Source: a virus (lineage: Duplodnaviria > Heunggongvirae > Uroviricota > Caudoviricetes). Taken from it: a stretch of DNA of 17,410 nucleotides. The position numbers and the translations under genes are program-made. Location: the IMG/VR virus record IMGVR_UViG_2690316099_000011, one strand, 5' to 3'. The notes below the pieces were generated by a model that did no database searches, was not told where the DNA came from, and saw only the letters and a list, made by a program, of their open reading frames with translations. This document shows, one piece after another, positions 3,272 through 17,410 of this stretch (position 1 is the stretch's first letter; each line of letters begins with the position of its first letter).

Positions 3272-3520
3272 GTGGTAACAGATAACCGCTCACTGATGAG
3301 TAGTGCTCATCAGAAGGCATTCAGTCTTGCAACACAGTTACCTCCTGAAACCATAAAAGCGTGTCGTGAGTTGACTGAACTCAGCATTGCCGGGGAAATA
3401 TCCCTGGAACAACTGCATTCGCTGCTGGCAGAGGCTGTCACTGATGAGTTGAGTGGCGTGGACGTGATGACTGAAGAGCTTGAGTTCCGAATCAAAAGCA
3501 TTCTGACAGGTAAAGCCTGA
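3272..3520 (+). CDS. Small 82-aa protein whose C-terminus is paralogous to the C-terminus of the gp27-like protein
   Basis: GTG start with GGAGG 6 nt upstream; the C-terminal 30 residues (AEAVTDELSGVDVMTEELEFRIKSILTGKA) align with the end of the upstream gene (ANAVTDELRGVDGMSEQIEFRIRQMLLGKA); its stop overlaps the terminase ATG. Confidence 0.55.
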   Translation: MVTDNRSLMSSAHQKAFSLATQLPPETIKACRELTELSIAGEISLEQLHSLLAEAVTDELSGVDVMTEELEFRIKSILTGKA

Positions 3521-5184
3521 TGAACAAAGCCAAAGAAACGTCTCCTTCACTGATACAAATGACGCCTCCCCGCAAAATTGATCTGTCCGGTGAAAAAGCC
3601 CTGCTGGGCGTGGATGTGCCGGACAGACTTGATTTGCCCGGTGATATGCCGGTGTTTCTGGATTATCAGGCCCGCTGGTTTGAGGATGAAAGTCAGGTCT
3701 GCATTGCGGAAAAATCCCGCCGCACCGGTCTTACCTGGGCGGAAGCCGGGCGTAACGTCATTACTGCTGCAAAACCGAAGCGTCGTGGTGGCCGCAATGT
3801 GTTTTATGTGGGATCAAAGCAGGAGATGGCGCTGGAATATATTTCTGCCTGCGCCCTGTTCTCCCGCGCCTTTAACCAGCTGGCGGATGCTGATGTGTAT
3901 GAGCAGACCTTCTGGGATCGGGATAAAAAAGAAGAAATTCTGACCTACATGATCCGCTTTCCGAACAGTGGATTCAAAATTCAGGCACTGTCTTCCCGTC
4001 CGTCAAACCTGCGCGGCCTTCAGGGGGATGTGGTGATTGATGAAGCCGCGTTCCACGAGTCACTGGATGAGCTTCTCAAGGCGGCAATGGCGCTCACTAT
4101 GTGGGGCGCGCGCGTGCGTATTATCTCCACGCATAACGGCGTCGATAATCTGTTTAATCAGTACATTCAGGAAGCCCGCGAGGGGCGCAAGGATTACAGC
4201 GTCCACCGCATAACCCTGGATGATGCCATTGCGGACGGGCTGTACCGTCGTATCTGTTACGTCACCGATCAGGAATGGTCACCGGAAAGCGAGCAGAAAT
4301 GGCGTGATGATCTCTACAAAAACGCCCCGACCCGTGAGGATGCCGACGAGGAATACGGCTGTATCCCGAAAAAATCCGGCGGTGCCTATATTCCTCACGC
4401 GCTTATTGAAATGGCGATGATCCGCGACATCCCGATTCTGACGTTTGAAGCCCCGGACAACTTCATCAGCCGTGCCGCATGGCTGCGTGAATCGGAAGTT
4501 TTAACCTGGTGTGAAGAACATTTAAAACCGCTTTTAGAGAAATTAAATCCCCGTTCCCGCTTCAGCTTCGGGGAAGACTTTGCCCGCACCGGTGACCTGT
4601 CCTGCTTTGTGCTGCTGGAAATCACCGAATCCCTGGCAAAGCGCGAGGTGTTTCGCGTGGAGCTGCGCAACCTGCCGTATGCCCAGCAGGAACAGGTGAT
4701 GATGTACATCCTGACCCGCGTTCCGGCGCTGGTCGGTGCGGCGTTCGACGCCACCGGTAACGGCGGCTATCTGGCAGAAGCCGCACTGCTGGCCTTTGGC
4801 CCGGACATCATCGACTGCGTGATGTTGTCGCCGAAGTGGTACGGCGAGTGGATGCCAAAACTGAAAGCCGAGTTTGAAGATCAGAATATCCTCGTCGCCC
4901 GCCATCAGACCACGCTTGATGATTTGCGCCATGTGAAGGTGGTGAATGGTATCCCGCAAATCGACAAGGGGCGCACGAAGGACCAGAACGCAACGGCTGC
5001 GAACGCCCGCCGCCATGGTGATTTTGCCGTGGCACTCTGTATGGCAAACCGGGCGTCATACATGGAGGGATTCATCCTGGATGAATCAGCCTGTCAGGCG
5101 CTGCCGGAGCGGTCGCGGGCAATGGAGGGCGGTTATCGTGATGACGATGAGGCATATCATGAATTTGAACGGGGGTGCTGGTAG
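3520..5184 (+). CDS. Terminase large subunit (Mu gp28-like)
   Basis: 554-aa ORF following the gp27-like gene and preceding the portal; acidic-residue motifs consistent with a terminase nuclease/ATPase (VVIDEAAF, a Walker-B-like hhhhDE). Confidence 0.9.
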   Translation: MNKAKETSPSLIQMTPPRKIDLSGEKALLGVDVPDRLDLPGDMPVFLDYQARWFEDESQVCIAEKSRRTGLTWAEAGRNVITAAKPKRRGGRNVFYVGSKQEMALEYISACALFSRAFNQLADADVYEQTFWDRDKKEEILTYMIRFPNSGFKIQALSSRPSNLRGLQGDVVIDEAAFHESLDELLKAAMALTMWGARVRIISTHNGVDNLFNQYIQEAREGRKDYSVHRITLDDAIADGLYRRICYVTDQEWSPESEQKWRDDLYKNAPTREDADEEYGCIPKKSGGAYIPHALIEMAMIRDIPILTFEAPDNFISRAAWLRESEVLTWCEEHLKPLLEKLNPRSRFSFGEDFARTGDLSCFVLLEITESLAKREVFRVELRNLPYAQQEQVMMYILTRVPALVGAAFDATGNGGYLAEAALLAFGPDIIDCVMLSPKWYGEWMPKLKAEFEDQNILVARHQTTLDDLRHVKVVNGIPQIDKGRTKDQNATAANARRHGDFAVALCMANRASYMEGFILDESACQALPERSRAMEGGYRDDDEAYHEFERGCW

Positions 5185-8088: not shown

Positions 8089-8243
8089 CGGTCAGTGGCG
8101 GGGGTCGAACCCNNNNNNNNNNNNNNNNNNNNNNNNNNNNNNNNNNNNNNNNNNNNNNNNNNNNNNNNNNGGCACCGACTTTACCAGTTAAGCGTACACT
8201 GACCGCCTGTTTATTTTATATTCATCTTTTATGCGGAGGCAAT

Positions 8244-8769
8244 ATGTCATCCATTGATGCGGCGGTCGTGGTGGACGTTGCGCGTCTCCAGCGGGTCTTT
8301 GCCCGGCTTCAGNNNNNNNNNNNNNNNNNNNNNNNNNNNNNNNNNNNNNNNNNNNNNNNNNNNNNNNNNNNNNNNNNNNNNNNNNNNNNNNNNNNNNNNN
8401 NNNNNNNNNNNNNNNNNNNNNNNNNNNNNNNNNNNNNNNNNNNNNNNNNNNNNNNNNNNNNNNNNNNNNNNNNNNNNNNNNNNNNNNNNNNNNNNNNNNN
8501 NNNNNNNNNNNNNNNNNNNNNNNNNNNNNNNNNNNNNNNNNNNNNNNNNNNNNNNNNNNNNNNNNNNNNCGGATTATGGCGATACCTGGGCGCTGATTGG
8601 ATCAAATGAACCTTATGCAGCCATTCATCAGTGGGGGGGCCTGCCTGGTATGCCACCGGGACCGGCGGCCATTGGCGCACGTCCGTATATGGGCTTTGAT
8701 CAGGTGGCAGAACAGGAGATCATGGACGAAATCAGAAAACGCTTTAAAAAGGCCACAGAAACGCCGTAA
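8244..8769 (+). CDS. Mu G-like protein (gp31 position), interrupted by an N-run at 8313-8569
   Basis: ATG 8244 with GGAGG 5 nt upstream; N-terminus MSSIDAAVVVDVARLQRVFARLQ and a C-terminal segment ending at TAA 8767-8769 are in different frames across the gap, so the gap length is not exact. Confidence 0.55.
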
Positions 8770-11061: not shown

Positions 11062-11421
11062 ATGAATGAACATCACACTGTGGCAGCAACAGATGATTCA
11101 GGCCTTCAGGTCAGTGGTGACAGTCCTGTCACGGTACTGGCAGAAGTGCGTTGCAGTCGTACGCATTTTCGTCGTGCGGGGTTCCTGTTCATGCGGGGAC
11201 GCCAGCAGGTTGACGTCACCCCGGAGCAGCTTGCCCGACTGGAAGCGGAGCCATGCCTCACTGTACGAATACTACAGACGCCTGGTGATGATGCGGGAGC
11301 CGTGGCGGGTGTGGTTCATGCAGAGACCGGTGCAGATTTAGCCGAAGCCGAAACCGTACAGGATGCTCCCCGGAAAAAGACCGGCAATAACGCCAGACAG
11401 GCAAAAAAGGCGCGCGCATGA
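11062..11421 (+). CDS. Hypothetical protein (Mu gp35 position) with a basic Lys/Arg/Ala-rich C-terminal tail
   Basis: ATG 11062 with GGAGGG 5 nt upstream; C-terminus PRKKTGNNARQAKKARA; stop overlaps the next ATG. Confidence 0.55.
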   Translation: MNEHHTVAATDDSGLQVSGDSPVTVLAEVRCSRTHFRRAGFLFMRGRQQVDVTPEQLARLEAEPCLTVRILQTPGDDAGAVAGVVHAETGADLAEAETVQDAPRKKTGNNARQAKKARA

Positions 11422-11872
11422 ATTACGCCACCGAAACCGATATGCGGGCACGTTACCGCGAGGATTTGCTCAGGCCATTACTGGCCGTGCCCCGTTCGGA
11501 TGAACCGGACACGCGCAAGCTGAACCGGGCACTGACGGACGCGTCTGCCCTTATCGACAGCTATCTGTCTTCCCGTTACACGCTGCCGCTGGCGGTGGTT
11601 CCGGCGGTTCTTGTTCAGCACTGCTGCACGATTGCCTTTTATTACCTGTGCGATCAGCGGGCATCCGATCAGGCGCGTGACCGTTACCGTGAGGCGCTGG
11701 CCTGGCTGAAAGACGTCATGAACGGCAATGTGCCGGTCGGCGTGGATACCGACGGTGCGGCCCCTGNNNNNNNNNNNNNNNNNNNNNNNNNNNNNNNNNN
11801 NNNNNNNNNNATTTACCGCAGGTGCAGTCTGATGCGGCGGTGTTCGGGCGCAACCAGAAGGGCTTTATATGA
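11418..11872 (+). CDS. Mu gp36-like protein (DUF1320 family), interrupted by an N-run at 11767-11810
   Basis: N-terminal 116 aa in a clear ORF; C-terminal segment ...VFGRNQKGFI* ends at TGA 11870-11872 overlapping the next ATG; the frame differs across the N-run. Confidence 0.6.
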
Positions 11873-11881
11873 TTACGGAAA
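11869..11881 (+). CDS. 5' end of the next head/tail-joining gene (Mu gp37 position); the remainder lies in the N-run at 11882-12875
   Basis: ATG 11869 overlapping the upstream stop (ATGA); only MITETEQ is visible before the masked stretch. Confidence 0.35.
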
Positions 11882-12877
11882 CCGAACAGGCNNNNNNNNN
11901 NNNNNNNNNNNNNNNNNNNNNNNNNNNNNNNNNNNNNNNNNNNNNNNNNNNNNNNNNNNNNNNNNNNNNNNNNNNNNNNNNNNNNNNNNNNNNNNNNNNN
12001 NNNNNNNNNNNNNNNNNNNNNNNNNNNNNNNNNNNNNNNNNNNNNNNNNNNNNNNNNNNNNNNNNNNNNNNNNNNNNNNNNNNNNNNNNNNNNNNNNNNN
12101 NNNNNNNNNNNNNNNNNNNNNNNNNNNNNNNNNNNNNNNNNNNNNNNNNNNNNNNNNNNNNNNNNNNNNNNNNNNNNNNNNNNNNNNNNNNNNNNNNNNN
12201 NNNNNNNNNNNNNNNNNNNNNNNNNNNNNNNNNNNNNNNNNNNNNNNNNNNNNNNNNNNNNNNNNNNNNNNNNNNNNNNNNNNNNNNNNNNNNNNNNNNN
12301 NNNNNNNNNNNNNNNNNNNNNNNNNNNNNNNNNNNNNNNNNNNNNNNNNNNNNNNNNNNNNNNNNNNNNNNNNNNNNNNNNNNNNNNNNNNNNNNNNNNN
12401 NNNNNNNNNNNNNNNNNNNNNNNNNNNNNNNNNNNNNNNNNNNNNNNNNNNNNNNNNNNNNNNNNNNNNNNNNNNNNNNNNNNNNNNNNNNNNNNNNNNN
12501 NNNNNNNNNNNNNNNNNNNNNNNNNNNNNNNNNNNNNNNNNNNNNNNNNNNNNNNNNNNNNNNNNNNNNNNNNNNNNNNNNNNNNNNNNNNNNNNNNNNN
12601 NNNNNNNNNNNNNNNNNNNNNNNNNNNNNNNNNNNNNNNNNNNNNNNNNNNNNNNNNNNNNNNNNNNNNNNNNNNNNNNNNNNNNNNNNNNNNNNNNNNN
12701 NNNNNNNNNNNNNNNNNNNNNNNNNNNNNNNNNNNNNNNNNNNNNNNNNNNNNNNNNNNNNNNNNNNNNNNNNNNNNNNNNNNNNNNNNNNNNNNNNNNN
12801 NNNNNNNNNNNNNNNNNNNNNNNNNNNNNNNNNNNNNNNNNNNNNNNNNNNNNNNNNNNNNNNNNNNNNNNNNNNCG

Positions 12878-12949
12878 GCAGCAGAAAAACCTGCGACTGA
12901 AAAACCCGCGACTGAAAAACCCGCAGCATCAGACAAGGGGACGTCCTGA
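12878..12949 (+). CDS. 3' end of a gene (Mu gp38 position) with a C-terminal EKPAT repeat tail
   Basis: Frame AAEKPATEKPATEKPAASDKGTS* ends at TGA 12947-12949, which overlaps the sheath ATG; the upstream part is masked. Confidence 0.4.
   Translation, partial: AAEKPATEKPATEKPAASDKGTS
12884..12928 (+). repeat. Three tandem copies of a 15-nt unit (GAAAAACCYGCGACT) encoding the EKPAT repeats
   Basis: Direct tandem repeat read from the sequence; it may continue into the upstream N-run. Confidence 0.6.
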
Positions 12950-14585
12950 TGATTAACTTTGATTATATCGGCGATAACAATCGCATTCCGCTGGTACAGA
13001 TTGAAATCAATAATTCAATGGCCGTGACCGGCACTCCACCACAGCGTCAGGCGGTACTGTTGTTTGGTCAGGCTGCAATGAAAGACACCACCATTCAGGG
13101 GCGCGGTCAGCTTGATGTACCAGTACGTATTACCCGAGCTTCACAAGCAAGAGAACTCTGGGGGCGAGGTTCCATGATTGCACTGATGGTAGAGGAATTT
13201 ATCGCCATTAACCCTGACACAGAGTTATATGCCATTGCACAGGGGGCTGGAACAGGTCAGTCCAGGGCATGCGTGATGAATATCATTGGAACAGCATTGG
13301 CAGACGGGGTGTTAAGTGTTTACATCGGCGGTCGCCGTTACCTCCTGCCCGTCAGTAAGGGGAAAAAAGGTAAAGAGCTTGTGGAAGAGCTGGCTAAGGT
13401 CATTAACGCTGACACTGATGCGCCATTCACTGCTATCGCAGCTGAAGTCAGTGGTGATAATGCTGAAGGACTTAAAGGGAGCATGGGGGTTAACGCCCGC
13501 TTTATCGGTGAATGCTCAGCTCATGATTTACGGGTGAACTATTATGACGGTGAAACTACACCGGCCGGTCTTACGCTGGAGCTCGTCGCGCCAACACAGA
13601 AGGCAACAAACCCCGATATCACCCGTAGCGTCTCAGGGATGGGGAATCGTCAGTACAACTACATCGTCATGCCCTATAAGGATGCGGCAAATCTCAAAAT
13701 TCTGGCGGATGAACTGCTGAAACGCTGGGGACCGGTAAAAATGTCGGACGGTATGGTCTGGATGGCGCATACCGGCACCTTCGGTACGGCAACCAGTTTT
13801 GGTGAATCCCGTAATGACTTCCTGTTTACCTGCACTTCTATTCCTAAAGCACCAGAGCCGGATTATGTCTGGGCGGCCTCCATTTNNNNNNNNNNNNNNN
13901 NNNNNNNNNNNNNNNNNNNNNNNNNNNNNNNNNNNNNNNNNNNNNNNNNNNNNNNNNNNNNNNNNNNNNNNNNNNNNNNNNNNNNNNNNNNNNNNNNNNN
14001 NNNNNNNNNNNNNNNNNNNNNNNNNNNNNNGCGCCCTCCCTGTCAACGGATCCGGCCCGACCATTACAGACACTGGCGCTGCCTGCCCGTATGGCACCTG
14101 AAGCACCGGCTCGTCTGACGCGGGAAGAGCGAAACAGCCTGCTTTATACCGGCATGTCCACGGTGACCGTTGCGGCCGCTGATGTGGTGCAGATTGAACG
14201 TCAGGTGACGATGTACCGTCAGAATGCATACGGCGAAAGCGATCCCAGCTATCTGGATGTAGAAACCATCTACACCCTGTCATATCTGCGTTATTCCCTG
14301 CGCACCTTTATCACGCAGCGTTTCCCGCGCCACAAACTGGCCGATAACGGTACTCCCGTCCGGCCCGGTCAGAATATCGTGACGCCGGAGATTATGACGC
14401 TCCAGCTGATTGCACTGGGGGAAGAATGGGTGGAACTCGGGCTGGTCGAAAATCTGGACACCTTTAAAAAGAATCTGCTCGTGGAGCGCAACACAAAAGA
14501 CCGTAACCGTCTGGATGTGATGTGTACACCGGATCTGGTTAACCAGTTCCGCTTCATGGCCGCGCAGATCCGTTTCATTTTGTGA
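12949..14585 (+). CDS. Contractile tail sheath protein (Mu gpL/gp39-like), interrupted by an N-run at 13886-14030
   Basis: About 300-aa N-terminal part plus a 164-aa C-terminal part ending at 14585, directly upstream of the tail tube gene; size and position fit a sheath protein; the frame differs across the gap. Confidence 0.7.
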
Positions 14586-14593
14586 GGTAAGGC

Positions 14594-14959
14594 ATGAGCG
14601 GAAAACAGCATCAGGGCACGGCCACCATCCGTGTGAACGGACAGGAGTACGCCACCCTTGAGGGAGCCACGTTCTCCCCGTCCGGCTTTGAGCGTGAAGT
14701 GGTGAAAGGCGCGAAAGTCTATGGCTATCGTGAGAAACCCCGTGAGGCGACGCTGGACTGTAAATTTCCGGCTGGCGGAGAAGGTTCACCGGCTGCCGAT
14801 GAAATCAACACCTGGACTGCGGTCACGATTGAGTTCGTGGCCGATACCGGTGAAGTCCATATGATGACGAAGGCCTGGAGCAGTGAACCGGCCTCGCTTG
14901 ACGGTGGCGGTGATATCTCCGCGAAGTTCGCCAGCGCCACCAGTACCCGTGTCCAGTAA
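14594..14959 (+). CDS. Tail tube protein (Mu gpM/gp40-like)
   Basis: 121-aa ORF immediately after the sheath gene with GAGGTAAGG before the ATG; sheath-then-tube order is typical of myovirus tails. Confidence 0.7.
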   Translation: MSGKQHQGTATIRVNGQEYATLEGATFSPSGFEREVVKGAKVYGYREKPREATLDCKFPAGGEGSPAADEINTWTAVTIEFVADTGEVHMMTKAWSSEPASLDGGGDISAKFASATSTRVQ

Positions 14960-14973
14960 TCAGGAAAAATGCA

Positions 14974-15453
14974 ATGACCACACGTAAGAAAAAAACGGCG
15001 GTTTCTGACGAGGCCGTGATGGAGGCTATCCGGGATGTACTTGAAGACGGCGATCCCCGCACCGCCGGGCTGGCTGAACAGCTGGCGAACGGCTATGTGG
15101 ATCTGCTCGACGGTCTGCCGTTCGGGGAATCCCGTGAATACCGCGTCACCTTCCGCGAACTGACGGCGAAAGACAGCATTGACGCGGAAACCGAGGCCGA
15201 GCGTCTTATGGAAACCCGAAATGGCGGCCCGGTTCTGATAGCCTCGCCGGCACTGCGCGGCATTGCACTGCTGCGCCGTCAGATTGCCGCTGTTGGCCAG
15301 ATTGAGGGGCCATTGTCTCCGCGTCAGATCGGACAGCTCAGCGAGCGCGATCTCTCCCGTCTGATGGCGGCGGTAAGCCTGCTTGATTCCGCGATGGCAG
15401 GAAAGCTGGTCGCTGAACGGGGGCGACCAGATGCAGTGCCGGGATCAGATTGA
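14974..15453 (+). CDS. Tail assembly chaperone (Mu gp41 position)
   Basis: 159-aa acidic protein between the tube gene and the tape measure gene; its 3' end is overlapped by a +1-frame ORF that has no start of its own. Confidence 0.6.
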   Translation: MTTRKKKTAVSDEAVMEAIRDVLEDGDPRTAGLAEQLANGYVDLLDGLPFGESREYRVTFRELTAKDSIDAETEAERLMETRNGGPVLIASPALRGIALLRRQIAAVGQIEGPLSPRQIGQLSERDLSRLMAAVSLLDSAMAGKLVAERGRPDAVPGSD

Positions 15454-15577
15454 AGAAGCCGCAATTGTGCTGGGGATGGTGACAAAAAGCGGCCCGGAGT
15501 GGGCGCTTAACCTCCCTTTATCGCAGCTTTACCGGCACTGCCGACAGACCGAAAAAATTCTCAGAACGAAGCAGTAA
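15377..15577 (+). CDS. Putative frameshift extension of the tail chaperone (the T part of a G/GT-like pair), in the +1 frame
   Basis: Frame-2 ORF open from 15377 to TAA 15575-15577 with no ATG or Shine-Dalgarno, overlapping the last 77 nt of the chaperone gene and ending 3 nt before the tape measure ATG; the -1 frame is closed by stops. Confidence 0.35.
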   Translation, partial: ACLIPRWQESWSLNGGDQMQCRDQIEEAAIVLGMVTKSGPEWALNLPLSQLYRHCRQTEKILRTKQ

Positions 15578-15580
15578 CCC

Positions 15581-15893
15581 ATGGCAAAAAACCTGAAAGC
15601 CTCCCTGATTGTCGATTTACTCGGCAATATTTCCGCCAAATCCCGCCAGTGGTCACAGGAGCTGGGGGCGTTCTCCCGTTCCGGCAGGACAGGCCTGGGT
15701 GGTCTTGGAAATGCAGCCCGCCGGGCCGGTCAGGAAACAGAACTTGTCGGCTCCCGTATGCAGCGAACGCTTGCCGGTGTTCGTGGCAGCATCCGCACGG
15801 TAACGTCAGATTTTGACCGCCTGCAGGGCAGCATTACCGGCACCATCGGGCGGATAAGCAACCTTTACGGGATGCTGGCGGGAGGGGCTGCGG
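15581..15893 (+). CDS. Tape measure protein, N-terminal part (Mu gpN/gp42 position); continues into the N-run at 15894-17400
   Basis: ATG 15581; translation MAKNLKASLIVDLLGNISAKSRQWSQELGAFSRSGRTGLGGLGNAARRAGQ... is a typical tape-measure N-terminus; not in the ORF track because it runs into N. Confidence 0.6.
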
Positions 15894-17410
15894 NNNNNNN
15901 NNNNNNNNNNNNNNNNNNNNNNNNNNNNNNNNNNNNNNNNNNNNNNNNNNNNNNNNNNNNNNNNNNNNNNNNNNNNNNNNNNNNNNNNNNNNNNNNNNNN
16001 NNNNNNNNNNNNNNNNNNNNNNNNNNNNNNNNNNNNNNNNNNNNNNNNNNNNNNNNNNNNNNNNNNNNNNNNNNNNNNNNNNNNNNNNNNNNNNNNNNNN
16101 NNNNNNNNNNNNNNNNNNNNNNNNNNNNNNNNNNNNNNNNNNNNNNNNNNNNNNNNNNNNNNNNNNNNNNNNNNNNNNNNNNNNNNNNNNNNNNNNNNNN
16201 NNNNNNNNNNNNNNNNNNNNNNNNNNNNNNNNNNNNNNNNNNNNNNNNNNNNNNNNNNNNNNNNNNNNNNNNNNNNNNNNNNNNNNNNNNNNNNNNNNNN
16301 NNNNNNNNNNNNNNNNNNNNNNNNNNNNNNNNNNNNNNNNNNNNNNNNNNNNNNNNNNNNNNNNNNNNNNNNNNNNNNNNNNNNNNNNNNNNNNNNNNNN
16401 NNNNNNNNNNNNNNNNNNNNNNNNNNNNNNNNNNNNNNNNNNNNNNNNNNNNNNNNNNNNNNNNNNNNNNNNNNNNNNNNNNNNNNNNNNNNNNNNNNNN
16501 NNNNNNNNNNNNNNNNNNNNNNNNNNNNNNNNNNNNNNNNNNNNNNNNNNNNNNNNNNNNNNNNNNNNNNNNNNNNNNNNNNNNNNNNNNNNNNNNNNNN
16601 NNNNNNNNNNNNNNNNNNNNNNNNNNNNNNNNNNNNNNNNNNNNNNNNNNNNNNNNNNNNNNNNNNNNNNNNNNNNNNNNNNNNNNNNNNNNNNNNNNNN
16701 NNNNNNNNNNNNNNNNNNNNNNNNNNNNNNNNNNNNNNNNNNNNNNNNNNNNNNNNNNNNNNNNNNNNNNNNNNNNNNNNNNNNNNNNNNNNNNNNNNNN
16801 NNNNNNNNNNNNNNNNNNNNNNNNNNNNNNNNNNNNNNNNNNNNNNNNNNNNNNNNNNNNNNNNNNNNNNNNNNNNNNNNNNNNNNNNNNNNNNNNNNNN
16901 NNNNNNNNNNNNNNNNNNNNNNNNNNNNNNNNNNNNNNNNNNNNNNNNNNNNNNNNNNNNNNNNNNNNNNNNNNNNNNNNNNNNNNNNNNNNNNNNNNNN
17001 NNNNNNNNNNNNNNNNNNNNNNNNNNNNNNNNNNNNNNNNNNNNNNNNNNNNNNNNNNNNNNNNNNNNNNNNNNNNNNNNNNNNNNNNNNNNNNNNNNNN
17101 NNNNNNNNNNNNNNNNNNNNNNNNNNNNNNNNNNNNNNNNNNNNNNNNNNNNNNNNNNNNNNNNNNNNNNNNNNNNNNNNNNNNNNNNNNNNNNNNNNNN
17201 NNNNNNNNNNNNNNNNNNNNNNNNNNNNNNNNNNNNNNNNNNNNNNNNNNNNNNNNNNNNNNNNNNNNNNNNNNNNNNNNNNNNNNNNNNNNNNNNNNNN
17301 NNNNNNNNNNNNNNNNNNNNNNNNNNNNNNNNNNNNNNNNNNNNNNNNNNNNNNNNNNNNNNNNNNNNNNNNNNNNNNNNNNNNNNNNNNNNNNNNNNNN
17401 CGGGGTGTCA

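Follow-up and report, generated by a model that had tools for sequence, protein, structure and literature searches.

A Mu-like prophage of E. coli very probably carries, in its late region, a copy of the -2 frameshift of phage Mu, in which a small share of the ribosomes would slip back by two nucleotides on GG-GGG-CGA near the end of the tail assembly chaperone gene and produce a fusion protein of 201 amino acids. The stretch of DNA analysed, referred to here as the window, comprises 17,410 nucleotides of that region (IMG/VR record IMGVR_UViG_2690316099_000011), and the reading given here is drawn from its sequence and from analogy with Mu. A programmed frameshift is supported because the slip site is identical to that of Mu, because the extension encoded past it is homologous to that of Mu, and because relatives conserve both this site and the reading frame used for the extension. 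It amounts to an orthologue, itself unannotated, of the well-known -2 frameshift of Mu and is in that sense already known. Recoding by this mechanism is textbook material, so that little is gained from the finding apart from a correct annotation of the gene pair.

Genomic setting

Mu-type genes in the window include those for Mor, gp27, the Mu portal, MuF, protease I and the major head protein T, and genes for a lysozyme and a sheath protein are also present. Among 5,426 complete E. coli genomes, 230 contain similar DNA. The tail tube gene (14594..14959; plus strand, as are the gene pair, its slip site, the helix arms and the tape measure gene described below), the analogue of Mu gp40 / M, matches Pfam PF10618 Tail_tube (E 1.4e-29) and lies directly 5′ of the chaperone gene; in the identical record of E. 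coli AF39, PGAP names its product 'phage tail tube protein'. The tail assembly chaperone gene itself (14974..15453), the zero-frame 'G' of the pair, encodes a protein of 159 aa and 17.1 kDa. This protein is a homologue of Mu gp41, with matches to Pfam PF23746 Gp41_Mu (E 1.2e-32; 112.7 bits against a cut-off of 27) and to PHROG 508 'tail assembly chaperone' (E 3.8e-42). The 5′ part of the tape measure gene follows (15581..15893), its remainder being masked by a run of Ns (15894-17400), and the AF39 chromosome, which is 100% identical, has a 685-aa 'tape measure protein' in the PGAP annotation. The gene pair is therefore found between the tail tube gene (14594-14959) and the tape-measure gene (ATG 15581), as an arrangement of the G/GT type requires.

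Six runs of N (8113-8170, 8313-8569, 11767-11810, 11892-12875, 13886-14030 and 15894-17400) hide sections of the sequence, the greater part of the tape-measure gene among them. Listed ORFs that cross these runs, for instance 11418-12956 and 12949-14118, are artefacts of the stop-free Ns. Elsewhere, an ORF of 554 aa (3520-5184) lies directly 5′ of the Mu-type portal gene, a position at which the large terminase is expected; a Pfam search with this ORF gave no match at E ≤0.001. After the lysozyme gene, two long ORFs (1141-1662 and 1334-1864) overlap in different frames, and the second of them contains an Rz1-like LysC domain, an arrangement which suggests an embedded pair of spanin genes.

The chaperone gene and the overlapping frame

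The chaperone ORF extends from ATG 14974 to TGA 15451-15453, in the frame with position mod3=1. A second frame (mod3=2) is free of stops from 15377, just after a stop at 15374-15376, to TAA 15575-15577. The two have 77 nt in common, and the ATG of the tape-measure gene (15581-15583) is found 3 nt past the end of the second frame. The third frame (mod3=0), into which a -1 shift would lead, is closed by stops at 15384, 15414 and 15480. An earlier note on this DNA, made from the letters and a list of ORFs, had described this geometry accurately, both in the coordinates of the frame-2 ORF (15377-15577), its 77-nt overlap and its end 3 nt before the tape measure ATG, and in the blocking of the -1 frame by stops. 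It was mistaken in holding that the frame-2 ORF has no start codon, as TTG 15383 and ATG 15431 (7 nt past the G-run) are both present in it, though not conserved. The junction that it gave for the shifted product, ...GGDQMQ..., is a raw reading of frame 2, and no shift at CGG-GGG-CGA would produce it.

The upstream part of the open +1 frame (15377..15424) precedes the shift point and is probably untranslated in the +1 frame; the corresponding open stretch ranges from 12 to 270 nt in length across relatives. The length of the ORF was considered as evidence for the feature but discarded, since the window has many long open +1 frames: 31% of the +1-frame codons inside its genes sit in stop-free runs of at least 66 codons. 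As judged from sequence, the reality of the feature rests on conservation, and the open frame alone is not beyond chance.

The slip site and the extension

The putative slippery octanucleotide GG GGG CGA (15419..15426) is identical in Mu and SfMu, and it falls within three successive zero-frame codons of the chaperone, CGG 15418, GGG 15421 and CGA 15424. The 'T'-like extension (15425..15577) consists of 50 aa and a stop codon, read in the +1/-2 frame after the shift. It is 51% identical to the extension of Mu, in the same frame (BLASTP, E 9e-21), and matches PHROG 12783 (E 1.2e-36). In Pfam, neither the extension by itself nor the tape-measure fragment matched any family. The proposals of the earlier note on these points hold up well. 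It had placed the shift at CGG-GGG-CGA (15418-15426), and the octanucleotide there is the one used by Mu. It had also recognized that the programmed frameshift is of the G/GT type and is placed between the genes for tail tube and tape measure, a view borne out by gene position, by the conservation of site and frame, and by the match to Mu. The alignment with Mu that it had suggested places the extension in the same frame after an identical site.

By the proposed mechanism, most ribosomes would end at 15451 and release the 159-aa chaperone, and a minority, which in Mu is about 2% according to the literature, would slip. Before the slip, the P site would contain tRNA-Gly paired with GGG 15421-15423, and the A site would contain tRNA-Arg(ICG) paired with CGA 15424-15426. 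A backward slip of two bases would allow the two tRNAs to re-pair on GGG 15419-15421 and GGC 15422-15424, respectively. Reading would then resume at GAC 15425 in the +1/-2 frame and continue up to TAA 15575, yielding a fusion of 201 aa in which ...VAERGR is joined to DQMQCRDQIEEAA.... The product predicted for this tandem -2 slip has a mass of 22,173 Da (22.2 kDa) and the junction ...ERGR/DQMQ; that predicted for a +1 shift has 200 aa, a mass of 22,017 Da and the junction ...ERG/DQMQ.

The roles of the two proteins can be proposed from lambda gpG/gpGT, as outlined in PMC5009743. Through their common part, the two would attach to the tape measure protein, and the extension of the less abundant fusion would bring in the tail tube protein. 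The frequency of frameshifting would fix the ratio of the two, and neither would end up in the virion. By analogy, the -2 mechanism and its efficiency are presumed to be the same in the prophage as in Mu.

Conservation among relatives

Relatives were collected from viral contigs and GTDB genomes, and 63 distinct sequences were analysed. The survey covers several orders of Proteobacteria and spans Kluyvera, Citrobacter, Brenneria and Serratia among the Enterobacterales, as well as Vibrio, Marinobacter and Magnetospirillum. GGG-CGA is found in the chaperone frame in 63 of 63 relatives, 21-57 nt ahead of the chaperone stop, and all 63 have an extension of 46-51 aa in the +1/-2 frame. Early stops close the -1 frame in nearly every relative. 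The codon before GGG-CGA is CGG in 54 relatives, AGG in one and AAG in eight; accordingly counted from the P-site codon, base -1 is G in 63/63 and base -2 is G in 55/63. The slip site is thereby conserved while the codons that flank it and the extension peptides diverge, and across distant lineages these peptides have little in common but an LPL-x-x-L-like motif.

Codon use sets the site apart from the genes in which it lies. In the same genes, NGG makes up 27% of Arg codons, GGG 17% of Gly codons and CGA 7% of Arg codons, against 100% for each of the three at the slip site. Because this choice is so far from the same-gene background, the slip site is considered to be selected at the nucleotide level. 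The extension, in turn, is considered a translated and selected coding sequence, because past the zero-frame stop variability is distributed as the codon positions of its frame would have it, with values of 0.255, 0.155 and 0.415 at positions 1, 2 and 3, respectively, in the 33 alignable relatives.

Two kinds of variant site were encountered. A Citrobacter-like clade (L013, L015, L018, L042-L047) has AAG-GGG-CGA, in which four Gs follow one another; the site lies about 24 nt ahead of the stop codon of the chaperone, and the extension is unchanged in frame and length. In some other relatives, four Gs are found instead of five (CGGGGCGA), which brings chaperone and extension into one frame (...ERGEWLQC...). 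These four-G variants comprise L020, L072 and L022, each near 1847, and the proteins P0101 and P0102; examples are found in Kluyvera genomosp. 3, in Erwinia tracheiphila ICMP 5845 and among 187-aa Mu-like proteins from Logan assemblies. Sequencing errors in the homopolymer, prophages in decay and genuine constitutive fusions are all conceivable explanations.

Direction of the shift and alternative origins of the extension

The shift is most likely -2 rather than +1, a direction transferred from Mu by homology and suggested also by the upstream Gs. The -2 direction is favoured because the identical site of Mu is recorded as a verified -2 site, and because Gs are conserved 5′ of the P-site codon. 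Their conservation fits backward re-pairing in the P site by two bases. The alternative is a +1 shift in which tRNA-Gly would move in the P site from GGG 15421-15423 to GGC 15422-15424 while a slow CGA waits in the A site, and it is improbable. Such a slip gives the same frame and is consistent with CGA being invariant at the site when it supplies so few of the Arg codons elsewhere, as a pause-driven shift might demand. However, it needs no Gs 5′ of the P-site codon, yet the -1 base is G in every relative and the -2 base in 55, in genes where NGG is otherwise just 27% of Arg codons; it also runs against the record for the Mu site. The AAG-GGG-CGA sequences (8/63 relatives) require no extra assumption under a +1 shift. 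Under a -2 slip, P-site re-pairing in these sequences is limited to just two of three bases, which attaches a small reservation to the fully tandem -2 model.

The earlier note had favoured +1 and had treated the feature as a departure from described cases. The frame that it assigned to the extension is confirmed by Mu and by the 63 relatives. The direction is not, as the Mu site is recorded as a verified -2, and an identical site in Mu that serves as the classic verified -2 frameshift makes the feature a familiar one.

An origin of the extension without any frameshift is more improbable still. It would be a separate protein of 48 aa started at ATG 15431, with the G-run 7 nt upstream acting as a Shine-Dalgarno-like element. 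Annotation offers some grounds for it: PGAP calls the ORF from ATG 15431 as a 48-aa 'hypothetical protein' in E. coli M1, in phage D108 the extension is covered by a separate 'gene 41.5' (571-717 in L097), PHROG 12783 gathers small ORFs of this kind, and an ATG at the equivalent of 15431 recurs in several clades. Against this, 19 of the 63 relatives lack any ATG, GTG or TTG from which the extension could be started independently, and one of the 19 is Mu, whose fusion is verified. Close relatives of the window have DQAQ or EQAQ where the window has DQMQ, and a separate start would leave the invariant GGG-CGA in the chaperone frame unexplained. Some independent initiation in the window is conceivable, because ATG 15431 lies 7 nt past the G-run.

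Least probable of all is slippage of RNA polymerase on the G5 run (one G lost or two gained) or a chance ORF that is not expressed, for although the frame-fusing four-G variants in assemblies would suit the former and the abundance of equally long open +1 frames in the window the latter, both are opposed by the conserved CGA codon and by an extension that is conserved as a protein would be, and Mu is annotated as a translational shift. In known cases of programmed transcript slippage, the homopolymer runs are far longer than five Gs.

A candidate downstream RNA helix

A -2 frameshift of the Mu type may be assisted by structure 3′ of the slip site, and a candidate is found in the window. The 5′ arm of a putative helix, GCAGUGCCGG (15433..15442), begins 6 nt 3′ of CGA and would pair with the 3′ arm, CCGGCACUGC (15532..15541). 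This long-range helix of 10 bp is present in both the MFE and the centroid folds of the window. It closes a domain of about 100 nt over most of the extension coding region, with an inner hairpin formed by 15492-15495 and 15501-15504. That the helix is a 3′ stimulator of the -2 frameshift, its short spacer helping -2 over -1, is a tentative proposal that is more doubtful than probable, and the helix is best regarded as a lead, below the rank of a finding.

Several observations agree with the pairing. Across the 33 distinct enterobacterial relatives (33/33), all 330 of 330 cells are standard pairs, and two pairs are compensatory. In the first, C-G or U-G becomes U-A in three sequences; in the second, G-C becomes A-U in L048, which changes Cys to Tyr in one arm and His to Tyr in the other. 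The covariation observed over three tested helices jointly was reached in 4 of 500 shuffles. The pairing is confounded with protein constraint, because the arms encode the conserved residues Cys-Arg and Arg-His-Cys. For bases +5 to +16 past CGA, the predicted probability of pairing with downstream sequence is 0.83 in the window, a value reached by 5 of 60 synonymous controls, and 0.99 in Mu, reached by none of 60. It is 0.84-1.0 in four unrelated, distant lineages whose sequences do not align with that of the window.

Folding energy gives a different picture for the window and for Mu. Compared with dinucleotide shuffles, the predicted downstream fold of the window (z -1.5) is far weaker than that of Mu (z -4.3), and compared with synonymous recoding the values are z -0.24 and z -3.1, respectively. 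Within the window's own clade there is no excess of structure over synonymous recoding (z -0.24 to +0.6), and therefore no structure is claimed for the window on energy grounds. RNAalifold found no convincing equivalent of the helix in the Marinobacter-like and Brenneria-like clades, and an Rfam scan of 15300-15700 at E up to 1 gave no known RNA family. Should the helix prove to be a stimulator, it would provide a bacterial model for how the spacing of a 3′ structure chooses -2 over -1 slippage.

Annotation of the gene pair

Existing records treat the extension unevenly. In E. coli AF39, RefSeq/PGAP annotates only the 159-aa chaperone, and the extension is absent. In strain M1, PGAP places an ORF at 1338-1484 of L017, corresponding to 15431-15577 of the window. 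Elsewhere the extension appears as a separate 'hypothetical protein', as 'gene 41.5', or within PHROG 12783, to which no function is assigned. Among the annotations compared, the joined -2 product is found only in GenBank AF083977, the record of Mu. The survey may be of use to recoding databases in that GGG-CGA and the -2/+1 frame are invariant across the gp41-family chaperones surveyed.

Comparison with known systems

Backward slippage by two bases that likewise opens the +1 frame is found in arterivirus nsp2TF and in Trichomonas vaginalis virus 1 (PMC5009743, PMC3622925). Both are eukaryotic RNA viruses with other slippery sequences, CC CUU UUU in the case of Trichomonas vaginalis virus 1, and they are unrelated to the window's site in sequence and function.

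Lambda is closer in position and logic. As summarised in PMC5009743, lambda makes an abundant chaperone and, through slippage of ribosomes close to the 3′ end of the gene, a rare form that is extended at the C-terminus (Levin, Hendrix and Casjens, 1993; Xu et al., 2013, 2014), and gpG/gpGT likewise precede the tape-measure gene (PMC5009743). In lambda the shift is -1; stops close that frame in the window, where the extension is read in +1/-2. In the literature, values for the ratio of the two proteins are given only for lambda and Mu.

The nearest system is that of Mu. In GenBank AF083977 (Mu_41/Mu_56), the entry for the joined CDS Mu_56 reads 'verified -2 translational frameshift in PMID 15469818' and also carries the label 'tail assembly chaperone frameshift product', its cited source being Xu, Hendrix and Duda (2004). 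PMC3458567 describes tandem -2 slippage on GG GGG CGA in Mu and states that tRNA-Arg(ICG) re-pairs better in the -2 than in the -1 frame at this site; a literature search for the literal site sequence returned PMC3458567 as the sole match. Mu is listed among the users of -2 frameshifting in PMC5009743, an efficiency of about 2.2% is given in PMC3498833, and the Mu -2 frameshift is mentioned in passing in PMC2628397 and PMC3622925. The window differs from Mu in several respects. Its chaperone shares about 46% identity with Mu gp41 and is longer at the N-terminus, its zero-frame stop comes 30 nt after the GGG codon as opposed to 24 nt in Mu, and its extension frame contains an ATG that is absent in Mu. 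The two are alike in that their chaperones belong to the Gp41_Mu family and in the order of tube, chaperone and tape measure genes; and in Mu and SfMu the identical AACGGGGGCGA is found near the end of gene 41, followed by a 50-aa extension in the same +1/-2 frame.
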